Assembly (NCBI GenBank): GCA_044866005.1
Contig: JBIOTN010000067.1
Coordinates: 1-64,000, forward strand
Source of the DNA: Candidatus Rokuibacteriota bacterium
Lineage (GTDB): Bacteria > Methylomirabilota > Methylomirabilia > Rokubacteriales > DASRDR01
DNA length: 64,000 bases
Direction: 5' to 3'
The position numbers and the translations under genes were made by a program. How positions within the stretch are numbered: position 1 is the first letter of the stretch; each line of letters starts with the position of its first letter. Shown here piece after piece: positions 31,516-54,095 of the stretch. The notes under the pieces were generated by a model that saw only the letters and a list, made by a program, of their open reading frames with translations, did no database searches and was not told the origin of the DNA.

Positions 31516-31547
31516 TTGACATTCCAGTTAACTGGAAGGATTACCCT
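31516..31547 (+). promoter_or_regulatory. MerR-family promoter/operator
   Basis: TTGACA-20bp-TACCCT with the perfect palindrome TTCCAGTTAACTGGAA in the spacer. Confidence 0.85.
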
Positions 31548-38391: not shown

Positions 38392-38408
38392 CGATTGGGG
38401 GGCTTCCC

Positions 38409-39092
38409 GTGCTGAGAGGCCGAGCCTGCAGGCTCCTGCTCATCGCGGCCGTGGTCCTCGCGGGCCCGGCGCCCGGCGGGGGCCAGCCCATGCCGGCGTC
38501 CACCGCGCCCACGGAGGCGGTCATTTCCGTTCGGGCCGCGGCCGGCGGGACCCTGCCGCAAGTGACCCGCGACCGGATCCGCGCCGTGCCGAACATCACG
38601 GCCATCGAGCCGTTCCTCGAAGGCAAGACGGCCGACGGGGTGAGGGTGATCGGGGTGGAACCCGCGCCGGCCCTCCACCTCCGGTCGGGCACCGGCATAC
38701 GGCCCATCGGCATCGTCCAGGGCCGCGGCATCGAGGCCGGCGACGCGCCGGAGGCGATCGTCGTCGGGAGGACGTTTTCGCAGAAGAACAAGACGGCGCT
38801 GGGGCTGAGCATCCCGGCCATGCTGACGAAGGATCATTTTCCCCCGCTCCTCGTCGGCGGCCAGGGCTTCGCGATCATCGGGATCTACACGACCGGCGAC
38901 GCCGCGACCGACGACCAGGTGCTCGTGCTGCTGCCGACCGCCCAGAAGCTCCTCAACCAACCCGGCCGGCTGAGCGGGCTCTATGTCACGGTCACGCCGG
39001 CGTCGCCCCGCACGGTCGAAGACGTCGCCGGCAGGCTGCGCCGCGCGCTCGGGGGCTCCGCCGAGGTGGTGGCGCTGCCGGGCCCGCGCTGA
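38409..39092 (+). CDS. Secreted stand-alone MacB-like periplasmic-core protein
   Basis: Signal peptide, VQGR, IVVG, FAIIGIY, LPTAQKL; no C-terminal TMs. Confidence 0.6.
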   Translation: MLRGRACRLLLIAAVVLAGPAPGGGQPMPASTAPTEAVISVRAAAGGTLPQVTRDRIRAVPNITAIEPFLEGKTADGVRVIGVEPAPALHLRSGTGIRPIGIVQGRGIEAGDAPEAIVVGRTFSQKNKTALGLSIPAMLTKDHFPPLLVGGQGFAIIGIYTTGDAATDDQVLVLLPTAQKLLNQPGRLSGLYVTVTPASPRTVEDVAGRLRRALGGSAEVVALPGPR

Positions 39093-39117
39093 GCGACGTC
39101 ATGCACGGGAGCACGTC

Positions 39118-39981
39118 GTGAGGGACTCTCGAGGCGCGGCTCGGGAGGGACGCGTCGTCGAGGACGCGGCCGCGACGAAACCGGGCGGCACCCTCTCGCC
39201 CCTTCGCGGTCTGTGGGTGCCGAGCCTCGCCCTTCTCGGGGTCGCGCTCGTCGGCTGGACGGCCTGGACCTACGGCGCCTTGAGGGGCCTCGAGTCCGCT
39301 GGCTTCGATGCGCCGTGGGCGCTCGCGGGCCTCGGATTCCTCGCCGGGGTCGGCGCCTTCTTCGCCCCGTGCGCGTTCGCGCTGTTCCCAGCCTATGTCT
39401 CGTACTACCTGAGCCTATCCGGCGAAGGCCGCACCGTCGGCCGGTCGCTCGGCCTGGGGCTCGCCTGCGCCGCGGGCAGTGCGCTGTTCTTCGGGCTGGT
39501 GGGGGGCGTGATTGCGCTGGCCGGCGGGGCGATCTCCACCTACTTGATCGCCGCGAAGCCCTTCGTGGCCCTCGGGGTTGTCGTGCTCGGTGCCGTGCAG
39601 CTTGCTGACGTCCGGATGCCGTCCCTGGCCCTGCCTTTTCCCCTGGACACCGGAGGCGCTCGCTCGGCGGGGGTCGCCGTGTTCCTCTACGGCTTCGGGT
39701 ACGCGCTCGCGTCCACCGGCTGCACCTTGCCGATCTACGTCTCGATCACCGTCCTGCCGCTCACGACCGGCTTCTCCGGGTCGGCTCTCTTGACCTTTAC
39801 GGCCTTCGCCGTCGCGATGGCGAGCTTGATGCTCGTCACCACCGTCTTGGTGGGGCTCGCCAAGCGGAGGATCCTGGCCGCGCTTCAAGGGTCCACGGTC
39901 TGGATCAAGCGCGCTAGCGGCATCGTGCTCATCGCCGCGGGCCTCTACCTCGGCTACTACTACGTGAGAGCCGGAATGTGA
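39118..39981 (+). CDS. CcdA/DsbD-type transmembrane thiol-disulfide electron transporter
   Basis: FAPCAF and STGCTLP Cys pair in a multi-TM protein; start uncertain. Confidence 0.82.
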   Translation: MRDSRGAAREGRVVEDAAATKPGGTLSPLRGLWVPSLALLGVALVGWTAWTYGALRGLESAGFDAPWALAGLGFLAGVGAFFAPCAFALFPAYVSYYLSLSGEGRTVGRSLGLGLACAAGSALFFGLVGGVIALAGGAISTYLIAAKPFVALGVVVLGAVQLADVRMPSLALPFPLDTGGARSAGVAVFLYGFGYALASTGCTLPIYVSITVLPLTTGFSGSALLTFTAFAVAMASLMLVTTVLVGLAKRRILAALQGSTVWIKRASGIVLIAAGLYLGYYYVRAGM

Positions 39982-40004
39982 GCCGCCTCACAGGGAGACG
40001 ACGC

Positions 40005-40313
40005 ATGCGACGTGTCGCCGGACTCATGGCGGTGCTGCTTCTGATGGCGTGGCTCACCGTGCCTGTCACCGCCTTCGCGGCGACCAAGGTCGCCGTGATC
40101 GAGGTCAAGGGGATGGTCTGTCAGGCCTGACCCTTCTCGGTCAAGACAGCCTTGGAGAGGCTGCCGGGGGTGAGCCGAGCTGACGTGAGCCTCGAGAAGG
40201 CGGAGGCTCGGGTCGAGTTCGACGACGCGAAGATCTCGGCCGACAAGCTGGCCGCGGCCGTCGACCGGCTGGGCTTCCGCGCTCGGGTGCTCGCCGTCGA
40301 GCCAGGGGGGTAG
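40005..40313 (+). CDS. Periplasmic MerP-like HMA protein, putative selenoprotein (GMVCQAU, U42)
   Basis: Not in the ORF track; signal peptide, then VKGMVCQA-TGA(40128)-PFSVKTALERLPGVSRADVSLEKAEARVEFDD, colinear with MerP GMTCAACPITVKKAL. Confidence 0.85.
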
Positions 40314-40314
40314 C

Positions 40315-40581
40315 GTGCCGGTCGAGATCGAGCTCTTGACCGCGCCCGGCTGAGGGAAATGCGAGGCCGCCAAGGCGTTGGCGCTCGACGTGATCGACTC
40401 GGTCCGAGCGGAGTGCCATGATGTGTGGCTCACGGTCGTCGACGTCACGGAGCAGCCTGCCGTGGCGGTGAAGTACCGCGTGACGGCGACGCCCGCCATC
40501 GCGATCGACGGAGTCCTCGCCTTCCGCGGCGTCCCCCCAGCCCACGTCCTCCGCGACCGAATCTTGCAGGCGAAGGCGTGA
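40315..40581 (+). CDS. Small thioredoxin/glutaredoxin-like protein, putative selenoprotein (UGKC, U13)
   Basis: MPVEIELLTAPG-TGA(40351)-GKC...ATPAIAIDG; starts 1 nt after the previous stop. Confidence 0.85.
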
Positions 40582-40635
40582 CTCGGTCTCGAAGAGCGGA
40601 GCCACAGCCCCCCTTTGGCTTGGCCACGATTTCAC

Positions 40636-40667
40636 TTGACTCTCCTCCCAGGAGGAGGGTTTAGCCT
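40636..40667 (+). promoter_or_regulatory. MerR-family promoter/operator
   Basis: TTGACT-20bp-TAGCCT with CTCCTCC-ca-GGAGGAG dyad. Confidence 0.8.
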
Positions 40668-40685
40668 CGGGTCAGGACGGGACAC

Positions 40686-41147
40686 ATGAGCGAGTTGAAG
40701 ATCGGGGCGCTGGCCCGGCTCGCGGGCTGCACGGTCAAGGCCATTCGATTCTACGAGGCGAACGGCCTCCTTTTCGCCGCTGCGCGCAGCCCGGCCCGGT
40801 ACCGGCTCTATACCGAGCGCGACCTCAGACAACTCCAATTCATCCAGCGTGCGAAGCTGATCGGGCTCCCGCTCACCAAGATCAAGAGTCTGGTCGTTCA
40901 CGTGAGCGAGGAGCAGTGCGGGTGTCCCACGATCCGGCCTCAGCTGGAGCAGCTGATCCGCGAGCAGCTCAAGGAAGTGGGGGACAAGCTCGACCAGCTG
41001 GCGCTCCTCAAGCACGAGCTGGAGGGCTTGCTGGCAAAGATGCGTGGCGCCGTGCGACCACTTCCCCAAGAGCTCTGCGTGTGCGGCGCACAGCATCACT
41101 CGGGGTTTGTCGGACTCGTGAAGCTCAAGCAAGGAGGACGGCGATGA
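40686..41147 (+). CDS. MerR-family regulator
   Basis: IGALA, AIRFYE, YRLY, QCGCP, LCVC. Confidence 0.9.
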   Translation: MSELKIGALARLAGCTVKAIRFYEANGLLFAAARSPARYRLYTERDLRQLQFIQRAKLIGLPLTKIKSLVVHVSEEQCGCPTIRPQLEQLIREQLKEVGDKLDQLALLKHELEGLLAKMRGAVRPLPQELCVCGAQHHSGFVGLVKLKQGGRR

Positions 41148-41479
41148 ACAAGAGTCGGAAGTCACCGGGCCTGCCGGTCCTGCCCGCCCCGCGCACCGAC
41201 TGCGGGGACGGCAGCTGCGGCTGTGGCTGCGGGATTCCGCTGGCCACGCCCAAGCCCACAAAGACCGGCAAGCAACGTACACGCCCGACCGGGGAAGGAG
41301 GAGCGAACATGGAGCCGGTGAGAATGTCGCTGTGCCATGAAGGTGCGGAGTGTCCGGAGGTGGTCGTCGAGCGAGACGAGGTTCGCATCGGCGAAGCCGG
41401 CAACCTGGCCGTGCTCAAGAAGGACGAGTGGAACATCCTCGTCGAGCTGATCCGATCGGGACAGCTGACGCAGCTGTAG
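41144..41479 (+). CDS. Small Cys-rich protein, with possible internal start at 41309
   Basis: ATGA overlap with merR; DCGDGSCGCGCG; in-frame ATG 41309 has AAGGAGGAG RBS and gives MEPVRMSLCHEGAECPEV. Confidence 0.65.
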   Translation: MNKSRKSPGLPVLPAPRTDCGDGSCGCGCGIPLATPKPTKTGKQRTRPTGEGGANMEPVRMSLCHEGAECPEVVVERDEVRIGEAGNLAVLKKDEWNILVELIRSGQLTQL

Positions 41480-41501
41480 AGTCGCGCGACGGAGAGCTCT
41501 C

Positions 41502-41645
41502 ATGGCACTGAAGAAGGGAGAGCGCTACCGCTGCCCGGATCCGAAGTGCGGCTGCGAGATCGAGGTCACCAAGGGCGCCGCGCCGGGCCAGGGCGGCGAT
41601 CTGAACCCGCGTTGCTGCTGCGGCAAGGAGATGCAGCGCGTGTGA
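41502..41645 (+). CDS. 47-aa desulforedoxin/zinc-ribbon-like Cys-rich protein
   Basis: MALKKGERYRCPDPKCGCEIEVTKG...PRCCCGKEMQRV; GGAGAG RBS; below the ORF track cutoff. Confidence 0.8.
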   Translation: MALKKGERYRCPDPKCGCEIEVTKGAAPGQGGDLNPRCCCGKEMQRV

Positions 41646-41705
41646 CGGGACGGGGTGCGGGACAATGGCCCCGCCCCCCGGTGCTCCGGGCAGAGGGACG
41701 CAGCA

Positions 41706-43148
41706 TCAGCGTCGTACGCGCCTCGTAGGCAGCAGGGCCCGACTCAGGTGGCGATTCCAGCTCCCGTAGCGCTCTCGGATCGCGCCCCGGGGGAGCGCCA
41801 GGAGGATCACGGCGGCGCCGATGATCATGTCGTTCGACGTCGCACCGACATTCGAGCCGGCGAGCACCCAGGGCGCGACGACGAGCCAGGCCCCGACAAC
41901 GACGTTGACGAGGCGCAAGGGGCGGGCCACTTCCGCCGTCACGATGATGGCCAAAGTCAGGATCAACGCCCCTCCGATGTGGTCGCTGTCCGCAGCCGGG
42001 CCCTCGGCCTGGACCACGGCGGGCGCCGCCATCAGCCAGACGCCAAGCGCCGCGCTGACCAGGAGAGTCCAGGGAGCGCCGATCCCCCACAGCATGGCCG
42101 GGACGATCCGGGAGATCGGTGACCCGTAGCGCGGGGTTCGGAGATCCTTGCCCTCGCGCTCGGTCGTGCCGCCCACCCAGAACGTCCACCAGAAGGGCTT
42201 CCCCTCCCGGACACTCTGGGCGAGGAACTGTCCCATCGCGACGACCTCGTCGAGCGTCAGGGGAATCATCAACAACATGAGGAAGGCCGCCGCCAGACAG
42301 AGGGTGCACCACTGACCGACGATGACGGGCTGGAGAATGACCAGCACGATGTGGGTGATGCCGAGCGGGACGACGAGGATCCCGAAGAACGTCACCATCC
42401 ATGGCATCGTGCGCCACCGAGTCTGGCCGCCCATGTAGCCCATGAGGGCTTCGAACGTATAGGCCGCCGCGCCCAGCCCCGCGTCCGAGATCGGCCAGGC
42501 ACGCGAGACCTCCGAGTGGAGGACGCGCATGGTGCCTTCACCGAAGAACGGTTCCCAGGCGACGTCGACATAGCCGAGCTGGACGGCGGCCAGATAGCGG
42601 GAGATGAACCAGCCGGCGAAGGCGAGCGCGATGATGGGCGTCCGCTGGAGCCAGGAAGACGGATTGTACGTCCATCCGGGCGGGATCTCCGGGCCGGGCT
42701 TCATCATGACCAGATGATGGGCCGCGCCCGGCATCATGGGCACGAGCACCGAGAAGGTGATTGCCAGCGCCCCGACCAGGGTATCGTTGACGTAGGCGAC
42801 CGGGCGTGGCGCCCAGAAGAGGAGCGGCGCAAACTGCAGCCACACGCCGACGAGACACACCGCCCAGCGCCCCGCGAAATCCAGGCGCGGCAAGAGCGAC
42901 AGCGCGCCGAAGCACGCGAGCAGCGCCCCGCTGATCGTGTCGCTCCACGCGGTCGCCGCGCTTTCGTAGCCGAACGTGGCGGGACTACCGATCAGCCATA
43001 CGCCCAGCACCGCGTTCGTCACGTTGGTCCAGAGCCATTTCGCGCGCTGCTGCCGGATCATCTCCAGATGGTCTCGAGCGTGTTCCTGCACCCCGTCCCG
43101 CGGGAGTGGCGCGGCAGGGGCGGCGTGCTCGGGACCTCGCCGGCTCAT
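41706..43148 (-). CDS. VKOR-family membrane protein with SPW-type repeats
   Basis: PISDAGLG, QWCTLC, repeated GxWLxxxPW TM hairpins. Confidence 0.85.
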   Translation of the reverse strand: MSRRGPEHAAPAAPLPRDGVQEHARDHLEMIRQQRAKWLWTNVTNAVLGVWLIGSPATFGYESAATAWSDTISGALLACFGALSLLPRLDFAGRWAVCLVGVWLQFAPLLFWAPRPVAYVNDTLVGALAITFSVLVPMMPGAAHHLVMMKPGPEIPPGWTYNPSSWLQRTPIIALAFAGWFISRYLAAVQLGYVDVAWEPFFGEGTMRVLHSEVSRAWPISDAGLGAAAYTFEALMGYMGGQTRWRTMPWMVTFFGILVVPLGITHIVLVILQPVIVGQWCTLCLAAAFLMLLMIPLTLDEVVAMGQFLAQSVREGKPFWWTFWVGGTTEREGKDLRTPRYGSPISRIVPAMLWGIGAPWTLLVSAALGVWLMAAPAVVQAEGPAADSDHIGGALILTLAIIVTAEVARPLRLVNVVVGAWLVVAPWVLAGSNVGATSNDMIIGAAVILLALPRGAIRERYGSWNRHLSRALLPTRRVRR

Positions 43149-43163
43149 CGGGCTCTCGCGGCT

Positions 43164-44243
43164 CTAAGCGGCCGTCCGGTCGAGCGATGACGGCGGCTCG
43201 AGCTTGTTCGCGCGATACCAGCCGAGGGGGTCGGCCTCGAGCGCGGCGATCATCTTGGGGAGCGTGCCTCCGAGCGAACGCTTCGGCTCCCAGCCGAGCA
43301 GGGTGCGCGCCCGGGTGATGTCGAGGGCGTAATGGTCGTCGGCGAGGTCGATCATCCACGGCTTGATGAACGGCTCGTCGCCCAGGGGCATCTGATCCTG
43401 GACCCAGGCGCCGGCCTTGGCCAGGGCCTTCGGGATCTCGCGCGTCTCCCACTCTTCCCCGTGGATCAGCCGACCGAGCGTGTGTTGCAGCTCGTCGTAG
43501 CTGAGCGTCGCCGGCTCTCCCACGAGCAGCGGCAGCTCCGGCGGCAGCTCGGCCCGGCGCTCGACGACCCTGAGGAAGGCCTCCACCAGATCCTCGAGGT
43601 GGACGAACGCCTGTCCGTGCGAGATGGCGCCGGGAAAGACGCGACTCGTGACCCGGCGCTCGTAGATCCGCTGAATCTGGCGCGCGAGCGGGATCGAGTG
43701 GCACCGGTCATCGTAGACGCCGGCGATCCGCAGGAGCACCGCGGGGATGTCACCGCGCTCGGCGCGGATGAGTCGCTCGGTCGTGACTTTCGACTCGGGG
43801 TAGTCCCACTTGGGCTCGAGCGGCCAATCTTCGTTGATGCGCTGACCGGGTGCGCAAGGCGCATGGACGAGCATGGTGCTGGAGAACACGAACTGCTCGA
43901 CCTGGAAGCGCTTGACGGCCCGAAGCAGCCGCTCGGTTCCTCGGATCGTAATCTCCTCGTATTTCGGGCTCGGCTCGCCGGAGAAGTCGTAGTACGCGGC
44001 GAGGTGGATGATCGAGGCGACGCGCTCGCCGTGGCGGGCGCGGACGCCGGCGAGGGCGCGGTCGACGCTCTCGTCCGAGGTGAGGTCGACGCGCACGCAG
44101 CCGGCGGTAGGTGGCGGCTCGGGCGGGTCGTCACGGTCGAAGCCCACGGTCGTGACGCGTTCGGTGAGCCTCTTGGCCGCCGCATAGCCGATGAGTCCGC
44201 TGCTCCCCGTGACGATCACGACCCCCGGCGATCGCGAGTCCAT
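43164..44243 (-). CDS. NAD-dependent epimerase/dehydratase family protein
   Basis: TGSSGLIG, HLAAYYD, YPESK. Confidence 0.88.
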   Translation of the reverse strand: MDSRSPGVVIVTGSSGLIGYAAAKRLTERVTTVGFDRDDPPEPPPTAGCVRVDLTSDESVDRALAGVRARHGERVASIIHLAAYYDFSGEPSPKYEEITIRGTERLLRAVKRFQVEQFVFSSTMLVHAPCAPGQRINEDWPLEPKWDYPESKVTTERLIRAERGDIPAVLLRIAGVYDDRCHSIPLARQIQRIYERRVTSRVFPGAISHGQAFVHLEDLVEAFLRVVERRAELPPELPLLVGEPATLSYDELQHTLGRLIHGEEWETREIPKALAKAGAWVQDQMPLGDEPFIKPWMIDLADDHYALDITRARTLLGWEPKRSLGGTLPKMIAALEADPLGWYRANKLEPPSSLDRTAA

Positions 44244-44268
44244 GTGGCCTCCACCCGCTGACGGATGG

Positions 44269-44610
44269 CTACGGTTTGGGCGGCTGCTTGCCCGGGCTCA
44301 TCATTCCGCCCGTCATGCCCCCCGAGCCCATGCGGCCCATCATCTCCATCATCCGGGTCATGCCGGCCATGACGTCGCCGTTTCCCATCTGGCGGGCCAT
44401 GCGCATCATCCCGTCCATCAGCTTGGCCGCGCGGCCGGACTGCAAGAGGTCCTGCATGGCGCGCCGGCCTTCCTCGCTCATGCCCCCGCCCTGCATCATC
44501 TCGACGCAGGCCGCCTGGGGGTCGGCCGGCGCCTGTTGAGCGCGAGCGGTGGGGACGGCGAGCAGGGCCAGGAGCGCGGGTCCCAGGATCGTCACTGTCC
44601 GCAGTGTCAT
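44269..44610 (-). CDS. Secreted methionine-rich protein
   Basis: Signal peptide ending ARA; about 19 Met in the ~90-aa mature part; GGAGGA RBS. Confidence 0.75.
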   Translation of the reverse strand: MTLRTVTILGPALLALLAVPTARAQQAPADPQAACVEMMQGGGMSEEGRRAMQDLLQSGRAAKLMDGMMRMARQMGNGDVMAGMTRMMEMMGRMGSGGMTGGMMSPGKQPPKP

Positions 44611-44724
44611 GGTCGATCCTCCTGTCGACGCCGGTGCGTGCGGTCCGTAACCCTGCAAAGCGGGTACCGCCGATCGCCCGGTTTGCGTGCGCCGGGACGC
44701 GAAGGATGGTAAGCTACCGGCCAG

Positions 44725-45054
44725 ATGGGGAAGCGGAGTCACCCCGCCGTTCCGATGACCCCGGCTCTCGCCGCCGTGCTGGCGGTCGTGGTCGCCGGCT
44801 TCTGCCTCGCCATCGAGGCCGGGACGGCCCACGCCGCAGGCGACGGGTGTCCGGCCTCGGAGTCCTCGCCCCGGTTCTGCGCGCAGGCCGGTCCCGGCGA
44901 TCAGGCGGTTCCGGGGCTGACCGTGGCGGCACTGGTGCCGCCGCCGGGGCCCGAGCTGGGCGACTGGCTGCCCGTCTCGGCCGCGCCGCCGCCGGCCGTC
45001 CGCTTCCACGCGGACGTCTCCCGCCCCCGCGCGCCCCCGCTCCTTCCCGCCTAG
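44725..45054 (+). CDS. Small exported protein ending in RAPP (candidate arrest peptide)
   Basis: Hydrophobic N-terminus, two Cys after the signal, Pro-rich linker, C-terminal PRAPPLLPA. Confidence 0.6.
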   Translation: MGKRSHPAVPMTPALAAVLAVVVAGFCLAIEAGTAHAAGDGCPASESSPRFCAQAGPGDQAVPGLTVAALVPPPGPELGDWLPVSAAPPPAVRFHADVSRPRAPPLLPA

Positions 45055-45169
45055 TCGCTCGATCTCGCTCGTTGGGATACCGGCCGCCGCGGACGGCGGC
45101 CAGGCTCGAGACTCGTCGCTCGACGTCATCGGACGACGTGTCCGTGGGCGCGTGGCGGAGGCGTGAACT

Positions 45170-45718
45170 GTGCGCGTGCAGCGGATTGCAGGCGGTCGGC
45201 CACACGTGGGGCTCGTCCTCGCGTTGCTCGTCTCCGTCTCGCCCGCGACGGTGTCGGATGCGACCGACGTCCGGCCGGCCGTCGGGCATCGCGCGCCCGA
45301 TTTCGTCCTCCGCGATCCGGACGGCCAGCCGGTCGAGCTCTCCCGGATCCTCGGCGAGCACGCCGTCCTCCTCAACTTCTGGGCGACCTGGTGTCCGCCG
45401 TGCCGCGAGGAGATGCCGACGATGGAGCGGGCGTACCGCGACTACAAGGCGCGCGGGCTCACGGTCCTGGCCGTGAGCATCGACGCCGGCAGTGAAGCAT
45501 CCGTCAGGGCGAAAGTGAAGGCGTTCATGAAGGAGCTGAAGCTCACGTTCCCGGCCGTGCTGGACGTCGAGGGCGAGGTCGTGCGCCGCTACCGGCTGCG
45601 CGGCCTCCCCACGACGTTCCTGATCGACCGGACGGGCATGATTCGATCGGAGGAGCTCGGGTTCCGGGACTGGAGCGATGCCGCGGCGCGAAGGAAGCTG
45701 GACGCCCTGCTGAAATGA
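45170..45718 (+). CDS. TlpA/ResA-like thiol-disulfide oxidoreductase
   Basis: NFWATWCPPCREEMP, LPTTFLID. Confidence 0.92.
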   Translation: MRVQRIAGGRPHVGLVLALLVSVSPATVSDATDVRPAVGHRAPDFVLRDPDGQPVELSRILGEHAVLLNFWATWCPPCREEMPTMERAYRDYKARGLTVLAVSIDAGSEASVRAKVKAFMKELKLTFPAVLDVEGEVVRRYRLRGLPTTFLIDRTGMIRSEELGFRDWSDAAARRKLDALLK

Positions 45719-45728
45719 GTCCCCGCCC

Positions 45729-46496
45729 ATGGCGCTGATTCACGAGCTGATGCGGAGCTGGTACCTGGTGCTGAGCCGGTTGAGCGCCGCGCTCACCGTC
45801 CCGGTGAGCGACCTCGCCGACCGGATCGAGCTCCCGCTCCTCACGGTGCTGCTCTTCGGCGTGGTCGGCGCGATGGCGCCCTGTCAGCTCACGACGAACC
45901 TCTCGGCGATGGCCTACGTCGGGAGCCGCGCCGGCGAGGGCCGGCCCTGGCGCGAGACGCTCGCCTACCTCGCGGGGAAGGCCCTCGTCTACACGCTGGT
46001 CGGCGCCGCCGTCTTCGCGGTCGGCCGGGAGCTCCAGGCGGCGGCCATTCCCGTGGCCATGGCGGCGCGAAAGGCGCTCGGGCCCCTCATGATCCTCATC
46101 GGCCTGGGGCTGCTGGGGCTCTACCGGCTGCGCGGCTCGCTCGGCGGTCGGCTCTCCGCCTGGCTGCGGACCCGGGCACCGCAGCGCGGCGCGTGGGGCG
46201 CCTTCCTGCTCGGCGTGGCCTTTGCCGGGAGCTTCTGTCCCACGCTCTTCTGGCTCTTCTTCGGCCTGACGATCCCGCTGGCCCTGCGGAGCGCGGCCGG
46301 GTGGAGCTTCCCGGCGGTCTTCGCGGCCGGCACCACGCTGCCCCTCGTCGCGTTCGCCGGGCTGCTCGCGCTGGGGCGCGAGGCCGGCGGGCTGGTCGAG
46401 CGCCTCCAGCGCTCCCACGGGCTCGTGCACCGGATGGCGGGGGTGGTGATCATCCTGGCGGGGATCAACGACACGCTGACGTACTGGGCGCTCTGA
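45729..46496 (+). CDS. CcdA/DsbD_2-like multi-TM protein
   Basis: APCQLTTN and SFCP Cys pair, about six TMs. Confidence 0.75.
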   Translation: MALIHELMRSWYLVLSRLSAALTVPVSDLADRIELPLLTVLLFGVVGAMAPCQLTTNLSAMAYVGSRAGEGRPWRETLAYLAGKALVYTLVGAAVFAVGRELQAAAIPVAMAARKALGPLMILIGLGLLGLYRLRGSLGGRLSAWLRTRAPQRGAWGAFLLGVAFAGSFCPTLFWLFFGLTIPLALRSAAGWSFPAVFAAGTTLPLVAFAGLLALGREAGGLVERLQRSHGLVHRMAGVVIILAGINDTLTYWAL

Positions 46497-46526
46497 GACA
46501 CGGCACGCTGAAACGGAGGATCTGAC

Positions 46527-47030
46527 ATGTCGAGGATCGAGCGAGAGCGAATCGGGGCGGCGGGCGGGGAGAACGGCGCGGGGACGGCCGGCCCGGGTGG
46601 CGGCGCGCGCTACTGTGCCGTGTGCGGGACGGCGGTGGGCGGCGAGAGTCCCCCGATCGAGCGCTTCGGCGAGCCGTTCTGCTCCGAGGCGCACGCGGCG
46701 GAGTTCGTCGACCGGGTGCGGGGCGCCCGGGTCCAGGCCGCGGCGAGGCCGCCGGCCGCGGGCAGCGCGTGTGCCATGGGTGCAGGCGACGCCGCCGCGC
46801 CGGGACAGCGCGGGAAGGCGACCCTCGGGCGGGCGCTCTGCTGGGGCGCGCCGCTCCTGGTCCTCGGCGTGCTGCTGGTCGGCGGCACCGGCGCGCTGGC
46901 GGGGGCGGCCGGCGCCCTCCTGCCCGCGCTCGCGATCCTGGCCTGCCCGCTCGGGATGTACCTGATGATGCGCTCGATGTCGAAGATGGGCCACCAGGAC
47001 GACCGCGGCGACACGGATGGCCGGAAGTAG
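46527..47030 (+). CDS. TRASH/YHS-like metal-binding domain plus DUF2933-like TM region
   Basis: CAVCG...FCSEAH; LACPLGMYLMMRSM. Confidence 0.7.
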   Translation: MSRIERERIGAAGGENGAGTAGPGGGARYCAVCGTAVGGESPPIERFGEPFCSEAHAAEFVDRVRGARVQAAARPPAAGSACAMGAGDAAAPGQRGKATLGRALCWGAPLLVLGVLLVGGTGALAGAAGALLPALAILACPLGMYLMMRSMSKMGHQDDRGDTDGRK

Positions 47031-47097
47031 CGCCGGCCGTGCGCCGGGCGCGAGCGCTCGCCCTGACGGCACGGTCGAGTAAAAAGGGGCGCGACGC

Positions 47098-47718
47098 GTG
47101 AAGCTCTACGAGCGGTACGTGTTGCCGTGGCTGATCCACCTGGCCATGCAGACCCGCGTGCACACCGCGGAGCGGGCGCGGTTCGTCCCCATCGCCACCG
47201 GGCTGGTCCTCGAGGTCGGGGTCGGCTCGGGGCTCAACCTGCCCTTCTATGGCCCGAAGGTCGCGCGGCTCTACGCGCTCGACCCCTCACGAGAGCTCTG
47301 GCGGCTGGCGCGCCGGCGGCTGCGAGCGGTCGCGTTCCCGGTCGACTATCTCGCGGCCTCGGCGGAGCAGATTCCCCTGGACGACGGGAGCGTGGACTCC
47401 GTCGTGAGCACGTGGACCCTCTGCACGATCCCGGATCCCGCCAGCGCGCTCGGCGAGATCAAGCGCGTCCTGAAGCCGGACGGGCGCTTCGTCTTCGTCG
47501 AGCACGGACGGGCGCCCGAGCCGGGCGTGCGCCGCTGGCAGCAGCGGCTCGACCGGGTCTGGCCGCGGATCGCGGGGGGCTGCCACCTCGGCCGCCAGAT
47601 CGACGACGTGATCGCCGGAGCCGGGTTCCGCGTGGCGCAGATCGAGCGCGGGTACACGCCGGGCTTGCCCCGGCCGTTCGGATACCGGTTCAAGGGGCTC
47701 GCCCAGCGCCCCGACTGA
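47098..47718 (+). CDS. Class I SAM-dependent methyltransferase
   Basis: VLEVGVGSG, TWTLCTIPD, FVEHG, GGCH. Confidence 0.9.
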   Translation: MKLYERYVLPWLIHLAMQTRVHTAERARFVPIATGLVLEVGVGSGLNLPFYGPKVARLYALDPSRELWRLARRRLRAVAFPVDYLAASAEQIPLDDGSVDSVVSTWTLCTIPDPASALGEIKRVLKPDGRFVFVEHGRAPEPGVRRWQQRLDRVWPRIAGGCHLGRQIDDVIAGAGFRVAQIERGYTPGLPRPFGYRFKGLAQRPD

Positions 47719-47734
47719 CCAACGGGAGGAAGAC

Positions 47735-48637
47735 GTGCGAAGACGCATACTGAGCTGGTTTCGGGTCGTAGGAGCGGGGGCGGCGCTGCTCGGGGCGACA
47801 GGGCTTGCGTCCGCCGCCTCGCAGCATCCTGGCACGGCGAGCTCGACGTTCGAGCATGTCCACGCCCTGGCGATGGACGCCGAGGGCCGGACGCTCTGGC
47901 TCGGGACTCACGCCGGGCTCTTCCGGACCGAAGGCGGGGGACGGTCGTGGGAGCCGGTGGCGCTGCCTGTGCCGGCGGGCCACGCCGACATCATGACGGT
48001 GACCACCGACCCGGGCGATTCCCGGGTGCTCTACGCCGCCACGCACGATGCCGGGGTCTTCAAGAGCGTGGACGGCGGGGCGACGTGGAAAGCCGTGAAC
48101 GCCGGCCTCGGCGGGCTGGACGTCCACGGGCTCGCCGTCGACCCGAACACGCCGTCGAAGCTCCACGCCGCCGTGCGGGACAAGGGCGAGGGGATCTATC
48201 GGAGCACCGATGGCGGCGGCAAGTGGACGCGCGTGGACGATGGACCCGGCGGCGAGGTCAAGGTCCTGGCCTCGGTCAACATGCCGACGGGGATGGGCGG
48301 CATCTGGCTGTACGCGGGCACGGCCGAGGGGCTTCAGCGGAACCCCGACTGTTTCTGAGGGTGGAAGCTCATGGCGGGCGGTCTGCCCGCCGGAAAGACG
48401 GTGAACGGCTTCGCGGTGGATCCCACCAATCCGCGCCTGATGTACGTCGCGATGCGGGACGGCCTCTTCCGCAGCACGGATGGCGGCGAGAGCTGGAAGC
48501 CGGTAGGTAAGGGGCTCCGGGACATGGCGGTCGTGGTCGTGAACCCGAAGCGGCCGGCCGAGGTCTACGCGGCGACGACCGATGGGATGATCTACCGGAG
48601 CGCCGACGGAGGAACCACGTGGGAACGCCGGAAGTGA
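47735..48637 (+). CDS. Secreted BNR/Asp-box beta-propeller protein, putative selenoprotein (CFU, U208)
   Basis: HVHAL/DVHGL and SxDGGxxW repeats continue in frame on both sides of one TGA at 48356 (NPDCF-U-GWK). Confidence 0.8.
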
Positions 48638-50163
48638 CGACGCTGTCGCGGCGGGACTTCCTCCGCCTGTCGGGCGGGGCCGGGGTCGGCGCCGTGGCCT
48701 TCTCGCTCGGCGGCGGCGTGCTCTCCCGCGCGGGCGCCGCGCCGGCCGGCGGGCGGGGCGTCCGGGAGATCCGGCTCGAGGCGAGCGACCTCACGTGGGA
48801 GCTCGCACCGGGGAAGCGCGTCAAGGCCATGGCCTACGGCGGCCAGGTCCCGGGGCCGGAGCTGCGGGTCAAGGAAGGCGAGCGCGTGCGCGTCATCCTG
48901 ACGAACCGCCTCGCCGAGCCGACGACGATCCACTGGCACGGGGTGGACGTCCCGAACGCCATGGATGGCGTGCCGGCGGTCACGCAGAAGCCGGTGCCGC
49001 CCGGCGAGAGCTTCGTCTACGAGTTCGAGGCGCGGCCCGCCGGGACGCGCTGGTACCACACGCACGCCGACGAGCATCGGCAGCTGGACCTCGGTCTCGC
49101 GGCGCCGTTGATCATCGAGCCGGCGACCGCCGAGCCCTTCCCCTTCGACCGCGAGTACACGCTCGTCCTCGACGACTGGGCGACCGGGACGGGTCCGGCA
49201 TTGCCGCCGACGCGCGAGGGGATCGCCGGCGCGCGCGGCGGCATGGGCGGGATGATGGGCCGAATGGGCGGCGGCATGGGCCGCATGATGGAAGGGATGA
49301 TGGGCCGGGGCGGCATGGGCGGGATGATGGGCGGCCAGATGTCGGGACGCGGGCACGAGCCGGCCTACGACACGATGACGATCAACGGCAAGGCCTACCC
49401 GGCGACGACCCCGCTCACCGTGCGGAAGGGCGAGCGGGTCCGCCTGCGGCTGATCAACGCCAGCGCCGACCACACGCACGTGATCCGGCTCGCCGGCCAC
49501 CGCCTCCGGGTCACCCACACCGACGGCAATCCGCTCGTCCAGCCGGTCGAGGTGGACGCGATCCCGATCGCGCCCAGCGAGCGCTACGACGTCCTGTTCG
49601 TGGCCGATCGGCCGGGCGCGTGGTTCCTCCACTGTGTGCAGACCGGTCACCCGGGCGCGGGCGAGCAGGTCGCCGTGGTGTACGAGGGGCACGAGGGCGA
49701 GAGACCCGACCCGCCGGCCGGGGGCGTGGCCGGGCTCGACCTCTGGCAGTACGGGCTCGGCCGGGGCCGGGACGTGCTGCCGCGCGCGTGGGGGGGCGAG
49801 CGCGCGTTCGACCTCCTGCTGAGCGGCGGCATGATGGGCTCGGACGCCTGGACGATCAACGGCAAGCAGTACCCGCGCACGGATCCACTGCGCGTCCGGA
49901 AGGGCGACCGGGTCCGCGTCCGGTTCGAGAACCACAGCATGGAGGCGCACCCGATGCACCTCCACGGGCAGTCGTTCAAGGTCCTCGCCGTCAACGGCGC
50001 CCGGTACGCGGCCCCCATCGTGAAGGACAGCGTGGACGTGGACGCTCACATGGGCTCGGTCGTCGTCGAGTTCACCGCCCACAACCCCGGCGACTGGTTC
50101 CTCCACTGCCACAAGCCCATGCACATGGAGGGCGGCATGATCACCCTCGCCCAGATCGCCTGA
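48634..50163 (+). CDS. Tat-exported multicopper oxidase with Met/Gly-rich loop
   Basis: SRRDFL, IHWHG, WYHTH, HPMHLHG, HCHKPMHMEGGM; start may be 48619. Confidence 0.93.
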   Translation: MTTLSRRDFLRLSGGAGVGAVAFSLGGGVLSRAGAAPAGGRGVREIRLEASDLTWELAPGKRVKAMAYGGQVPGPELRVKEGERVRVILTNRLAEPTTIHWHGVDVPNAMDGVPAVTQKPVPPGESFVYEFEARPAGTRWYHTHADEHRQLDLGLAAPLIIEPATAEPFPFDREYTLVLDDWATGTGPALPPTREGIAGARGGMGGMMGRMGGGMGRMMEGMMGRGGMGGMMGGQMSGRGHEPAYDTMTINGKAYPATTPLTVRKGERVRLRLINASADHTHVIRLAGHRLRVTHTDGNPLVQPVEVDAIPIAPSERYDVLFVADRPGAWFLHCVQTGHPGAGEQVAVVYEGHEGERPDPPAGGVAGLDLWQYGLGRGRDVLPRAWGGERAFDLLLSGGMMGSDAWTINGKQYPRTDPLRVRKGDRVRVRFENHSMEAHPMHLHGQSFKVLAVNGARYAAPIVKDSVDVDAHMGSVVVEFTAHNPGDWFLHCHKPMHMEGGMITLAQIA

Positions 50164-50236
50164 CGATGTCGGACGGACGGCGAGGAGGCGAGGGCGGGAA
50201 GTCGCCGCATGGGCCGCTCGGGAGGAGGCCGACACC

Positions 50237-50812
50237 GTGAACCTGTCACGCTGGGGTTGGGGTTCCCGCGCCTCCCGGCTCGGATTGTTGGTGCTGGTGG
50301 GCCTGGCGGCGCCGGCGCTCGCGGCCTCGGGGCCCGGCGACGCGCCCAGGGACCCCTTCGACACCATGGGCGTGCACCGTCCGGCGGAGCCGGCGCCGGC
50401 TCCGGATCTGGCCTTCCGGTCGCTGGACGGTCGCGAGGCGCGCCTGCGCGACCTCCGGGGCAAGGTGGTCCTCCTCGGTTTGTTCCGGACCGACTGACCC
50501 AACTGCCGGCGGGAGGCTCCCGCCAAGGCGGCGCTGTATCGGGCGTTCCGGGCAAAGGGACTGGAAGTCGTGGGACTCGACCTGGGGGAATCGGCGGAGA
50601 TGGTCCGAGCCTTCGCGAGAGAGTTCCAGGTGACGTTCCCCATGTGGCTCGACCCCGCGGGCCAGAGTCCGGCGGCCCTCGGCGTCTACGGGCATCCCAA
50701 CACGATCGTCATCGACCGCGAGGGCCGCATCGTCGGCCGCGTCCGGGGCGAGCGTGACTGGGGCACCGACGACGCCCGACGTCTGGTCGAGGTCCTGTTG
50801 AGCCGCCGATGA
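50237..50812 (+). CDS. TlpA-like redoxin, putative selenoprotein (UPNC, U87)
   Basis: LRGKVVLLGLFRTD-TGA(50495)-PNCRREAP...HPNTIVIDREG; two track ORFs are the two halves of one frame. Confidence 0.87.
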
Positions 50813-51549
50813 CCCGGAAAACGGGGCTGGCCAGAATGCCGCGAGCGGCGTGGCTCGCCGGCCTCGTCGTCCTGCACGCCGCCGTCGCCGCCGTGGCGAC
50901 GTGGATGGCGGTCACCGGGCAATGGCCCCGCGCGCTGGGGCTCGGAGCGGCCGGCGAGTCCACGCCGGCGACCCTGGAGACGCTCGGCCGGTACGGCGAA
51001 CTGCCGGACTTCCGGCTGACCGAGCGGAGCGGCGACAGTGTGAGCCGGGCCGACCTGCTCGGGAAGGTCTGGGTGGCGAACTTCGTCTACACGCAGTGCA
51101 CCGAGACGTGCCCGCTGCAGACGGCCGAGATCGCGCGACTCCAGGCCGAGTTCGTGGGGGAGGCGGACTTCCGGCTCGTCTCGATCACCGTGGACCCCGA
51201 GCGGGATGACACGGCGGCCCTGTCGCGCTACGCGGAGCGCTACGGAGCGGACAGGCAGCGCTGGCTGTTCCTCACCGGGGACAAACGCGCGATCTACCGC
51301 CTCGCCAAGGACGGCTTCCGCCTGGGCGTCGTCGATCCCGACGACCCCGGAGCGAGCCAGACGAGCCTTCTCCACTCCTTCTCACCGGCCGCGGCGTGGG
51401 CGACCCACGGCTCCCAGGGCCTGATCATGCACAGCTCCCGGTTGGTGGTCGTGGACCGGACCGCGACGATCCGCGCCTATCACCTCCCCGACGACCCGCA
51501 ATCGCTCGCTCGTCTCCGGCGGAACGTGCGGAGCGTGCTCCACCCGTGA
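50809..51549 (+). CDS. SCO family copper chaperone
   Basis: FVYTQCTETCP, ITVDPERD, WLFLTG, MHSSR. Confidence 0.9.
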   Translation: MTRKTGLARMPRAAWLAGLVVLHAAVAAVATWMAVTGQWPRALGLGAAGESTPATLETLGRYGELPDFRLTERSGDSVSRADLLGKVWVANFVYTQCTETCPLQTAEIARLQAEFVGEADFRLVSITVDPERDDTAALSRYAERYGADRQRWLFLTGDKRAIYRLAKDGFRLGVVDPDDPGASQTSLLHSFSPAAAWATHGSQGLIMHSSRLVVVDRTATIRAYHLPDDPQSLARLRRNVRSVLHP

Positions 51550-51686
51550 ACCAGCTCTGGAGGCTCGGCCGCTGGGCGGCCGCTGGCCTGGTCGTCGCCG
51601 TCGTGGCCAAGGTCAGCCTGGAGATCATGCGCGGCGGCCCGGGCCGCCACAACGTCGAGGCGGTGCGCGACGCGCGCGGCGGATGA
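51546..51686 (+). CDS. Small single-TM peptide
   Basis: 46 aa; start and stop overlap both neighbours (GTGA and ATGA). Confidence 0.45.
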   Translation: MNQLWRLGRWAAAGLVVAVVAKVSLEIMRGGPGRHNVEAVRDARGG

Positions 51687-52267
51687 GGTCGCCGATGCCT
51701 CGCCTCGGAAAGTACGCCATGGTGCTCGTCCCGGCCGTCGGCCTGATCGGGCTCCTCGCCTATGGCTTTAGCCGGGACCCCCGCGACATCCGCTCGCCGC
51801 TCCTCGGGCGCCCCGCCCCGCCGCTGTCGCTGACGCTCTTCGACGGCAGCCGGTTCGTCCTGGCCCAGCAGGCGGACAAGGTCGTCGTCGTGAACTTCTG
51901 GGCGTCCTGGTGCCTGCCGTGCCGGGACGAGGCGCCGCTCCTCGAGGCCGCCTGGGTCGCCTACCGGGAGCGCGGGGTCGTCGTGGTCGGGGTAAACTTT
52001 CAGGACGCGGAGCCCGCCGCGCGCGCCTTCCTCGGTGAGTTCGGCCTGACGTACCCGAACGGGCCCGACGCCGGTGGGCGGATCGCGATCGGCTACGGCG
52101 TCTACGGGATCCCCGAGCTGTTCGTCATCGGGCGGGACGGGCGGATCGCGTACAAGCACATCGGCGCGATCGGGGGGACTGTGCTCGTGGCGAAGGTCGA
52201 AGAGGCCCTCCGCGGCACGGTCAGCGCGAGCGAGGGGCGGAGCGGGCGCTATCAACCGATCCGGTGA
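51683..52267 (+). CDS. TlpA/DsbE (CcmG-like) thiol-disulfide oxidoreductase
   Basis: NFWASWCLPCRDEAP, YGVYGIPE. Confidence 0.9.
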   Translation: MRSPMPRLGKYAMVLVPAVGLIGLLAYGFSRDPRDIRSPLLGRPAPPLSLTLFDGSRFVLAQQADKVVVVNFWASWCLPCRDEAPLLEAAWVAYRERGVVVVGVNFQDAEPAARAFLGEFGLTYPNGPDAGGRIAIGYGVYGIPELFVIGRDGRIAYKHIGAIGGTVLVAKVEEALRGTVSASEGRSGRYQPIR

Positions 52268-52284
52268 CCGAAAGGAGCCACTCG

Positions 52285-52773
52285 GTGTCGCAGGACGATC
52301 GGAACGTCGAGCGATCGCGCATCACGCTGCTGGCCGGAGGCCTCGCCCTGGCGCTCACCCTGGCGACCCGGCGGGAATCTCGCGCGGCGCCAACGCCCTT
52401 TCCCGAGGTCATGGTCTACAAGACCCCGACCTGACGCTGCTGCGACGCGTGGGTGGGGCACCTGCGCCAGCACGGGTTTTCGGTGACGGTCGAGAATCGC
52501 ACGGACCTCCGGCCGATCAAGGCGAAGCACGCGGTGCCGGCCGAGCTCCAGACCTGTCACACGGCGCTCGTCGGCGGCTACGTCGTGGAAGGGCACGTGC
52601 CGGCCGACCTGATCGTCCGCCTGCTCCGCGAGCGGTCGCCGGTGGCCGGCCTCGCCGTCCCCGGGATGCCGGTCGGGTCGCCCGGGATGGAAGTGCCGGG
52701 GAGCCCGGCGGCCAAATATCAGGTCTTCAGCTTCGACCGGAGCGGCAAGACGACGGTGTTCGCGAGCCGGTGA
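52285..52773 (+). CDS. DUF411/CopG-like periplasmic copper protein, putative selenoprotein (URCC, U50)
   Basis: AAAGGAG RBS; VYKTPT-TGA(52432)-RCCDAWVGHL...TCHTA...EGHVP...PGMPVGSPGME. Confidence 0.87.
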
Positions 52774-52779
52774 GACGGC

Positions 52780-53133
52780 ATGGCGGGAGCCGGTCGCCGC
52801 GGCGTGCTGGTCGGTTTCGGTCTCGCGGCCCAGGTCCTGGGCGCGGTGGGCCCCGCCGGGGCGACGCCGCTCCAGAACCTGGCCGACGACCAGGTCGTCC
52901 GGACGATCCGCTACTGCCGCGGCGAGTACCGGCTCACCATGGCGAGCGGCGCGCGCCGGCGCTTCCCCGAGTTCAACCTGCGCTTCAAGACCGATGGCAG
53001 CCGGGAAGGCCCGGAGCGCGGCCGGCCGGTGTTACTGCCGGCCGGGATGCAAGGGGACCGCGGGCAGGTGATCTTCAGCGGCCCGGAGGAGCTCAGGCGC
53101 TTCCTCGTCGAGGGGTGTGACGGCACGCCGTAG
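52780..53133 (+). CDS. Exported hypothetical protein
   Basis: Signal-like N-terminus; IRYC, FPEFNLRFKTD, AGMQGDR; operonic spacing. Confidence 0.6.
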   Translation: MAGAGRRGVLVGFGLAAQVLGAVGPAGATPLQNLADDQVVRTIRYCRGEYRLTMASGARRRFPEFNLRFKTDGSREGPERGRPVLLPAGMQGDRGQVIFSGPEELRRFLVEGCDGTP

Positions 53134-54025
53134 CGGGGGTGCCGCGGCCCTTCTCATCCTTCTGCTGGCCTCCGCGCCGCCGGCGCCGTCCCACGAACTG
53201 CCGACCTTCCCGCGGGTCCGCCTCCTCTCGGCCTCGCCGCATCGGTGGGACCCTGGGATTCGCATCGTGACCGTCGAGGTGCGCGACCCGAGCGGGCGCG
53301 AGCCGGTGGCGGGCGCGGAGGTGGTCGTCTCGGGGCTCGAGCGGGAGCGTGGCTCGGCCGTCCGCCTGCGCGACCACTGGCTCGCGCCGACCCCGCAGGC
53401 CGGCGTCTACCAGGGAGCCGTGGAGTTCCCGGGACCCGGCCTGTGGGACTTGACGGTCACCGTGAAAGGTCGCTACGTCGGCGAGGCGCACTTCACGCTC
53501 GAGGTCACCGGCGCCGGGCCGCGGGCGGCCTCGCGAGGCGGTCAGCCGGAGCTTGCCTTCGGCTGGCAGGGCTGGCGGTTGCTCGTGCTGAACTGGGGCC
53601 ACCTCCTCGGCTTTGGTCTCTGGCTCGGCATCACGGCGCTCGCGCTCGCGCGGCGGGACCCCGCGCCCCGGGCGACGGTGCGCCTGACCTGGCTTGCGCT
53701 CGCCATCGGCGTCGCCACCGGCTTCAACAAGATGGAATACGGGACTCCGTTTCCCCGCGGCCTGCGCCTCCTCGACTGGGACGTGCCGCGGATCTTCTTC
53801 GGCCGGGAGTACCTCTACACCCTGACGGCGAAGCATCTCTTGATCGTCGCGGCCTTCGCCGTGACGGCCTGGATGACGCGCCTCGTCTGGCGCGCCGAGC
53901 CGAGCGCCGCGGGTGGCCGGCGGTTCCGGCAGCTCCTCCTCGTGAACCTGCTGCTCGCCCTGGCCATCGGCGGCGCAGCCGCGATCCTCGGACTGCTCCA
54001 CGCGATCGTTCTCCACTTCGCCTGA
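53117..54025 (+). CDS. YtkA/FixH-like Ig domain fused to a CopD-like four-TM domain
   Basis: GVYQGAVEFPGPGLWDLTVTV; TM helices with His (WGHLL, AKHLL, LLHAIVLH). Confidence 0.6.
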   Translation: MTARRSGGAAALLILLLASAPPAPSHELPTFPRVRLLSASPHRWDPGIRIVTVEVRDPSGREPVAGAEVVVSGLERERGSAVRLRDHWLAPTPQAGVYQGAVEFPGPGLWDLTVTVKGRYVGEAHFTLEVTGAGPRAASRGGQPELAFGWQGWRLLVLNWGHLLGFGLWLGITALALARRDPAPRATVRLTWLALAIGVATGFNKMEYGTPFPRGLRLLDWDVPRIFFGREYLYTLTAKHLLIVAAFAVTAWMTRLVWRAEPSAAGGRRFRQLLLVNLLLALAIGGAAAILGLLHAIVLHFA

Positions 54026-54053
54026 GCCGGCCGGCACGGCGGAATGAATCCTC

Positions 54054-54095
54054 TTGACAGGAGTAGACTGGCAGTCTTTTAATGACCCGAAGTCA
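54054..54095 (+). promoter_or_regulatory. Sigma70-like promoter with TetR-type operator
   Basis: TTGACA-18bp-TTTAAT; AGACTG-g-CAGTCT and TGAC-N5-GTCA dyads; TGAC-N5-GTCA recurs at 54743-54755. Confidence 0.65.

Follow-up and report, generated by a model that had tools for sequence, protein, structure and literature searches.

Between positions 40005 and 52773 of a 64,000-nucleotide (nt) stretch of DNA from a Candidatus Rokuibacteriota bacterium (contig JBIOTN010000067.1 of assembly GCA_044866005.1, hereafter the window), five genes each contain an in-frame TGA codon, and comparison of their sequences strongly supports the reading of these codons as selenocysteine (Sec). The genes encode an HMA-domain protein similar to MerP and CopZ, a Thioredoxin_3-type protein (Trx), a secreted beta-propeller with BNR/Asp-box repeats, a TlpA/ResA-like redoxin, and a DUF411 protein of the CopG family. 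The five TGAs are very probably decoded by the organism's own SelA, SelB, SelD, and tRNA-Sec together with hairpins downstream of each codon, within a cluster of this soil bacterium for the homeostasis of copper or another soft metal.

Translation of the region with TGA kept open agrees with the original prediction, which had placed a single TGA in a Cys-pair motif of each gene and had described frames that continue to a natural end. There is exactly one internal in-frame TGA per gene (40128, 40351, 48356, 50495, and 52432), and the true stops are TAG for the HMA gene and a second TGA for the other four. A change of genetic code, with TGA assigned to Trp or Gly, was rejected because TGA also terminates four of the five genes. 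Downstream of each TGA, the G+C content at third codon positions is 0.85–0.93, which is the coding signature of this genome. The HMA gene probably starts at the ATG at 40005 rather than at the GTG at 39978.

Gene callers and public databases treat these TGAs as real stops, as the prediction had expected of standard annotation: public protein sets carry propeller fragments of approximately 205 aa that end just before the TGA, as well as 106-aa C-terminal pieces of CopG. If this were correct, the genes would be pseudogenes, products of assembly error, or pairs of separately translated fragments, and the energies of the hairpins that follow the TGAs, unremarkable for the genome, would fit such an interpretation. 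However, every TGA recurs in orthologues from other genera, and the same codon is found at the same column across genera, orders, and phyla. Public soil-metagenome contigs were compared with the window over 39900–52800. Contigs from run X4, which comes from a study other than that of the possible source samples, cover 39900–42621, 47357–48941, and 51895–52623 with two, one, and zero differing letters, respectively, and among the differences listed none falls at 40128, 40351, 48356, or 52432; an X5 contig covers 50378–51131, with 50495 included, without a single difference. The TGAs are thus confirmed in independent contigs, which is good though not exhaustive support that they are not assembly errors. 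Relaxed selection past the TGA, which would have spoken against recoding, was not seen. In orthologues with TGA, the downstream amino-acid identity is 0.55–0.72 across the five families, and third-position differences are approximately twice those at first and second positions in four families and approximately 1.7- to 1.9-fold in the propeller, as is to be expected of frames that are under purifying selection. True termination would also leave the Trx protein with an N-terminal piece of 12 residues and would divide folds that need both halves, in a genome that has Sec machinery. We consider it extremely improbable. Several rows in these comparisons come from unpublished genomes (G038, G113, and G244), and no totals depend on them.

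The Sec machinery, for which the prediction had proposed a search, was found in full. In this genome (4.67 Mb, 94% complete, 71.6% G+C, with the window on contig C67), selA (595 bits) and selB (382 bits) both lie beside tRNA-Sec (76.2 bits, called as SeC (tca) by ARAGORN) on contig C79, while selD (391.6 bits), which itself contains one in-frame TGA, is on C1; all four exceed their curated cut-offs. When the whole genome was scanned roughly for TGAs that have coding-like flanks and a Cys no more than three residues away, 39 places were returned, an unfiltered list in which gene junctions are included. The 12.8-kb cluster, which makes up 0.27% of the 4.67 Mb, contains three of these places, compared to approximately 0.1 expected by our arithmetic, and the scan thresholds missed the two short genes of the cluster. 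The organism looks selenoprotein-rich by this measure. Motifs on the list include SelD, four D-U-G-S-C proteins, several CxxU AhpD-like proteins, three WATWUPxC redoxins, two rhodanese-like proteins, and a GMTUGSC HMA protein on C82.

Read-through could in principle yield something other than Sec, or not Sec alone, if near-cognate tRNAs inserted Trp or Cys, or if termination depended on conditions such that selenium scarcity gave truncated regulatory products. The propeller, which has no Cys homologues, would accommodate this explanation, and the evidence for Sec insertion sequence (SECIS) elements, described below, is comparative only. Against it, homologues with TGA were found for all five families and homologues with Cys at the same column for four of them, the classical Sec/Cys signature that the prediction had anticipated throughout; TGA ends four of the same genes, which argues against a general reassignment; and a dedicated tRNA-Sec/selA/selB locus is present together with approximately 39 similar candidates genome-wide. 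Decoding of this kind is quite improbable, and selenocysteine remains the preferred reading.

The Sec/Cys exchange is seen in CopG. The window protein matches Pfam DUF411 (PF04214) with 86.6 bits (cut-off 27) and the structure 6WIS in the Protein Data Bank (PDB) with an E-value of 1.8e-29 over residues 50–167, where U57 is aligned to the first Cys of CxCC; no NCBIfam model matches it. In 40 related genomes and its own, CopG was found at 21 places, of which 20 were translated and one, a partial row without a locus, was not; 11 have TGA and nine have Cys, in all cases at the first Cys of CxCC. Across 251 genomes of the phylum there are 74 CopG places in 65 genomes, and 58 of the 74 contain TGA (57 with one and one with two). 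The remaining 16 have none, and at least two of these stop short of the motif. Among the best 80 CopG loci in contigs from one genome per species, 19 have U and 61 have C, and the U-form records are labelled as Methylomirabilota-type (five), Chloroflexota-type (seven), delta proteobacterium (three), Deferrimicrobiaceae, Terriglobia, Verrucomicrobiia, and one other.

CopG is described as a periplasmic protein which carries a tetranuclear Cu cluster bound by CxCC and two Met residues, and which aids copper resistance, with proposed roles in Cu(I) oxidation and copper hand-over; it is often encoded with multicopper oxidases (PMC7558416; PMC8456105). The window protein is similar to CopG of Pseudomonas aeruginosa (PDB 6WIS/6WJE) and to CutG of the Rhodobacter capsulatus cutFOG operon in its family, in the position of CxCC, and in the two-Met motif (Met-x6-Met, present as G-M-P-V-G-S-P-G-M), and also in probably being secreted and in having genes for a multicopper oxidase and a copper ATPase nearby. 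It differs from them in having Sec for the first Cys of CxCC, as do most copies in the order and copies in several other phyla. Sec at this position would put a selenolate into the CopG copper cluster.

The propeller presents a different picture, with a Sec codon in every orthologue found. PDCFU is present in all 11 close copies, and the TGA is also present across the phylum in 43 of 43 places that match at E<=1e-50, which come from 40 of 251 genomes and show identities of 40–73%. The protein matches Pfam Sortilin-Vps10 (57 bits) and BNR (41 bits), has Asp-box repeats, and scores 129.2 bits against NCBIfam F510_1955 (NF045728), below the cut-off of 175. Its predicted structure (pLDDT 86.6, pTM 0.82) retrieved GH74 propellers, the BNR protein 3b7f, Ycf48, and DAIP from the PDB with Foldseek, that is, generic propellers and no metalloprotein. 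The photosystem II assembly factor Ycf48, 3b7f (annotated as a putative glycosyl hydrolase with BNR repeats), and F510_1955, all single-domain propellers, share its fold and its Asp-boxes. Unlike these, the window propeller has one Asp-box that is rebuilt around CxU (D-C-F-U-G-W), TGA in each orthologue, and an oxidase neighbour. A profile search of 1.8 billion representatives was swamped by giant multi-propeller proteins and returned no usable Cys homologues. One full-length homologue from NCBI (63% identical) has Leu at the Sec column and keeps the Cys, H-V-H, and T-G-M-G-G; either natural variation from Sec to Leu or an error could explain it. A paralogue, L213 (G001:C182, 704–1483, + strand), is 46% identical and lies just upstream of the propeller(U) gene in G001. 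Its copy of this Asp-box (P-D-U-F-U-G-F) contains two in-frame TGAs, a number also seen in a row from G082, and it would be a double-Sec form.

The other three proteins belong to kinds in which Sec is known. The HMA protein exceeds the Pfam HMA cut-off (PF00403, 48.5 bits vs 24.8) and falls below those of NF041115 (85.3 vs 95) and MerP (71.5 vs 92.55), and is thus a member of neither equivalog. Nineteen HMA rows in relatives comprise five CxxU (its own included), three CxxC, one of them a close homologue, seven UxxU, two UxxC, and two that are partial or without the motif. The NF041115 UxxU (seleno)protein, MerP, and CopZ share the HMA fold and the GMxCxxC loop with the window protein, and MerP also shares the secreted leader; in contrast to NF041115, the window protein has a single Sec in the second position (CxxU) and a fixed arrangement of CcdA-like, HMA(U), and Trx(U) genes. 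Trx matches PF13192 (41.7 bits, cut-off 24.8) and falls below TIGR00411 (46.5 vs 92.75). Only four places were found in 41 related genomes, all four with TGA. In three homologues from databases the Sec column is occupied by Cys (SPGCGKC). It has the Pfam family in common with Thioredoxin_3 proteins of the MJ0307/MTH895 type and with the catalogued PF13192 selenoproteins Sec.1 (CxU) and Sec.2 (UxC), from which its UxxC motif differs. The TlpA-like protein exceeds the cut-offs of AhpC-TSA (77.8 bits) and Redoxin (64.1 bits), aligns UPNC with the CxxC column, and is below those of the NCBIfam models for ResA (85.9 vs 170) and TlpA (71.8 vs 230). There are three orthologues with TGA (T-U-P-x-C or W-U-P-Q-C) and many WATWUPDC/WATWCxPC paralogues; 17 TlpA-like sequences among the matches listed comprise ten with U, six with C, and one partial. 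Fold and UxxC position are those of Prx-like, Redoxin, and TlpA-type selenoproteins (PF00578, PF08534, cd02966), and the differences lie in the local motif (T/D-U-P-x-C vs the W-A-T-W-U-P-D-C of the commoner paralogues) and in the coupling to SCO1 by a stop/start overlap. The G004 orthologue, L206 (G004:C200, 16027–16577, - strand), was recovered in two matches that meet at 16305, which suggests a frameshift or a misassembly.

In bacteria, the SECIS element is located immediately past the UGA. A hairpin follows each of the five TGAs, starting 9 to 19 nt downstream, and its position is conserved in orthologues. In the HMA gene, a 26-nt stretch is identical in all five Sec forms, synonymous sites included, compared to four differences in the Cys form L108. 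The Trx stem has one compensatory pair, CG in two sequences and GC in two. All 12 propeller sequences preserve the stem and 11 of them the loop GGUCU, with one pair varying as UA (six), CG (three), or UG (three) and another as CG (11) or GC (one). The TlpA-like hairpin is kept in 4/4 sequences with a single compensatory pair (GC in three and UA in one, the latter from the unpublished genome G038), and 11 Sec forms of CopG share an 8-bp stem in which one change is compensatory. The hairpins are compatible with SECIS function and are partly supported by covariation; we do not count them as independent proof because their energies are at background and because the Cys forms of CopG fold nearly as well. 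Hairpin energy was itself considered as evidence for recoding and set aside, as there is no excess over background in this 72% G+C genome.

A 2026 review lists 119 selenoprotein families in its Table 1 (PMC13188914). The UxxC redoxins (PF00578, PF08534, cd02966), a selenoprotein kind known for a long time, are among them, together with the NF041115 UxxU metal-binding protein, MerT-type and P-type ATPase selenoproteins, and both CxU and UxC forms of PF13192; DUF411 (PF04214) and propeller or glycosyl-hydrolase-like families are absent from that catalogue. DUF411, CopG, BNR, and Ycf48 are likewise absent from BSepDB, including an excerpt of its supplementary genome list, and from the main texts on deep-Sep and of a 2022 review. 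No paper was found that pairs "selenoprotein" with "DUF411", and literature searches combining selenocysteine with CopG and copper, with Rokubacteria, or with multicopper oxidase and propeller gave nothing relevant. The TlpA-, HMA-, and Trx-type proteins are therefore of known kinds, whereas new families seem to be represented by CopG(UxCC) and by the propeller(CxU) linked to the oxidase.

Table 1. Genes, candidate SECIS hairpins, and promoters in and near the cluster (positions in the window).
Feature	Position	Strand	Details
HMA (MerP/CopZ-like) predicted selenoprotein	40005..40313	+	leader peptide, GMVCQAU, Sec codon 40128-40130; Pfam HMA
Thioredoxin_3-type predicted selenoprotein, 88 aa	40315..40581	+	no leader, PGUGKC, Sec codon 40351-40353; Pfam
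Secreted BNR/Asp-box beta-propeller, predicted selenoprotein	47735..48637	+	PDCFUGW, Sec codon 48356-48358; Pfam BNR/Sortilin-type
TlpA/ResA-like redoxin, predicted selenoprotein	50237..50812	+	DUPNC, Sec codon 50495-50497; Pfam AhpC-TSA/Redoxin
DUF411/CopG predicted selenoprotein	52264..52773	+	TURCC (Sec = first Cys of CxCC), Sec codon 52432-52434; Pfam
Candidate SECIS, HMA gene	40147..40163	+	7-bp stem, apical loop GGA, 19 nt past TGA
Candidate SECIS, Trx gene	40362..40387	+	consensus 8-bp stem
Candidate SECIS, propeller gene	48373..48391	+	G+C-rich stem, apical loop GGUCU
Candidate SECIS, TlpA-like gene	50504..50530	+	apical loop GGC
Candidate SECIS, CopG gene	52447..52467	+	8-bp stem, 5-nt loop starting with G
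MerR-type promoter before merR1 and P1B-ATPase	31516..31547	+	TTGACA, perfect 16-nt palindrome (31522-31537), 19-20 nt spacer
merR1	about 31583-32020	+	Pfam MerR_1/MerR-DNA-bind
P1B-type heavy-metal ATPase, N-terminal HMA domain	32021-34435	+	Pfam E1-E2_ATPase, Hydrolase, HMA
CcdA/DsbD-like membrane protein CcdA1	38983..39981	+	Pfam DsbD_TM, 27.4 bits; stop overlaps upstream GTG of HMA frame
MerR-type promoter before merR2	40636-40666	+	TTGACT and 7-bp inverted repeat
merR2	40686-41147	+	Pfam
SPW-repeat and VKOR fusion, 480 aa	41706-43148	-	mid-cluster, opposite strand
Secreted Met-rich protein, 113 aa	44272-44610	-	homologues near propeller(U) gene in G029, G006, G039
TlpA-like redoxin, WCPPC	45170-45718	+	Pfam
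Second CcdA/DsbD_2 membrane protein	45729-46496	+	Pfam
Cys/Met-rich membrane protein	46527-47030	+	position upstream of propeller conserved
Multicopper oxidase, twin-arginine leader, Met-rich insert	48619..50163	+	Pfam Cu-oxidase, Cu-oxidase_2, Cu-oxidase_3
SCO1/SenC copper chaperone	50809-51549	+	Pfam
Second redoxin, WCLPC	51683-52267	+	Pfam

The genes around the five (Table 1) were identified by Pfam as the CcdA-, TlpA-, SCO-, VKOR-, multicopper oxidase, P1B-ATPase, and MerR genes that the prediction had named, with two of the last, and a MacB-type ABC system is also among them. The end of the propeller gene overlaps the start of the oxidase gene, and the stop of TlpA(U) overlaps the start of SCO1. 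In relatives, tblastn of the cluster proteins on ten contigs from eight related genomes recovered conserved synteny as three recurring modules. Module A is contiguous in G004, as merR, P1B-ATPase, CcdA1 (78% identical to that of the window), HMA(U), and Trx(U), the last directly after HMA(U); in G024, CcdA1 adjoins HMA(U), merR is nearby, and Trx(U) lies approximately 460 bases beyond CcdA1. In module B, a membrane protein gene of the type at 46527 is directly upstream of propeller(U) in seven of the eight relative loci that hold the propeller, the oxidase gene is directly beside it in five of the eight with one gene between in two more, and SCO1 is usually next. Module C groups SCO1, TlpA(U), a redoxin, a protein of the type encoded at 52780, and CopG(U) in G004. 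The true start of CcdA1 is probably further downstream than 38983.

The prediction had called the proteins largely periplasmic, and hydrophobic or twin-arginine-like N-terminal leaders in the translations make this probable for most of them; the Thioredoxin_3 protein, however, is probably cytoplasmic because it has no leader. The VKOR fusion is a possible quinone-linked oxidant for periplasmic thiol and selenol proteins. Copper pumps usually have a C-P-C membrane motif. The P1B-ATPase has Y-P-C, and also a second, C-terminal HMA-like segment with C-D-G-C. Directly past merR2, and behind its MerR-type promoter, are two small Cys-rich open reading frames (41162–41645, + strand) with the motifs C-G-D-G-S-C-G-C-G-C-G and C-P-D-P-K-C-G-C ... 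C-C-C-G. They gave no family matches and are possibly metallothionein-like. Elsewhere in the window, an OsmC-like gene (20628–21095, + strand) with a TGA at 20820, VAGUMTG, and coding-like flanks is a sixth candidate selenoprotein.

The claim that the cluster is MerR-regulated is a weaker one. Two MerR-type promoters were found, neither of them directly upstream of a selenoprotein gene; the pattern of the merR2 promoter has no other match in the window, with zero expected. MerR control of selenoprotein genes is plausible for module A only, by way of a possible long transcript over 31583–40581. A scan for the sigma-70 consensus gave zero promoter-like sites in 38000–54200.

Several observations weigh against the reading of these genes as Sec-encoding parts of a copper pathway. 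The five hairpins are within the energy background, as fractions of 0.54, 0.36, 0.08, 0.27, and 0.08 of 3000 control stretches taken after Cys codons fold as well; their single-sequence folding z-scores are only -1.15 to +0.37; and CopG genes with Cys fold nearly like those with Sec (mean z of 0.23 vs -0.17, p = 0.06). No Cys was found at the propeller Sec column, where Leu stands, or the CxU motif is lost, in five full-length relatives and three TGA-less paralogues have ordinary Asp-box residues (S/T-x-D-x-G-x-x-W), so that the notion of a Cys-equivalent site fails for this family. No MerR-type site was seen before the gene row at 45170–54025, and no promoter was tied to modules B and C. In Rhodobacter, mutations in the CxCC and Met motifs of CutG left oxidase activity undiminished (PMC8456105), so that even with Cys in the motif the involvement of CopG in maturing the oxidase is not established. 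Module A, for its part, could handle a soft metal other than copper, such as mercury or silver. As for the propeller relatives, in four of the five the losses extend to the motif Cys, the T-G-M-G-G Met, and the first of the two His in H-V-H. This joint loss of CxU, Met, and His hints at one functional site, for which H41, H43, M184, C206, and U208 are proposed as candidate metal-binding residues.

The recoding may be real in a cluster that does not serve copper but general extracytoplasmic thiol/selenol redox and the maturation of cytochromes or cuproenzymes, or, at least in module A, defence against mercury or another soft metal. The HMA protein scores best against the "metal-binding (seleno)protein" model and MerP, both below cut-off as given above; CcdA, TlpA, SCO1, and VKOR are maturation and redox families; and the Cys pattern of the merR2 metal-binding region is, in our reading, unlike that of a textbook copper sensor. 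The multicopper oxidase with its Met-rich insert, SCO1, CopG, the Met-rich secreted protein, and the P1B-ATPase point instead to copper, as does the merR1 operator in its apparent likeness to CueR-type, or copper-type, MerR operators; merA and merB did not turn up in the window, although no search was aimed at them. On this balance we regard a non-copper role as rather unlikely.

In the mechanism proposed for this cluster, taken as a selenium-rich form of a locus for copper (or soft-metal) homeostasis, selenols would replace thiols at metal-binding or redox-active positions. Module A, which includes a CcdA-like membrane protein, HMA(CxxU), and the leaderless Trx(UxxC), may act as a cytoplasm-to-periplasm relay of reductant or metal around a MerP-like metal scavenger. 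The propeller of module B would work with the oxidase and might assist its assembly or deliver copper, an analogy drawn from Ycf48-type propellers and from cutF and cutG beside cutO. In module C, the Sec-redoxin (UxxC) would keep SCO1 and CopG reduced, and CopG (UxCC) would bind or redox-cycle copper with Sec as one of the cluster ligands. A bolder reading, which we put forward tentatively and hold to be somewhat doubtful, is that the cluster reveals two uncatalogued families, a CopG with a copper–selenium centre and an obligate-Sec secreted propeller whose copper-handling Asp-box serves the oxidase, and that these form a selenium-based copper pathway together with the Sec-containing HMA, Trx, and TlpA-like proteins. 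The co-varying His and Met would then possibly join the propeller copper site, and CopG-Sec would be widespread in Methylomirabilota and occur also in Chloroflexota, Desulfobacterota-type, and other soil lineages.

For the practice of annotation, these genes are a warning that in very G+C-rich genomes folding energy alone may fail to separate SECIS elements from background, as it did here. Surveys of copper resistance and of selenoproteomes in soil metagenomes would undercount the genes because they are split or truncated in public annotation. With these findings, the bacterial selenoproteins would gain two families, of which one is very widespread. The uncharacterised propeller gains a first functional handle in its constant Sec codon and its copper oxidase neighbour, and CopG offers a concrete place to examine how a selenolate behaves within a cluster of copper. 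Whole metal-homeostasis pathways, beyond single redox enzymes, may thus be open to rebuilding with selenium.

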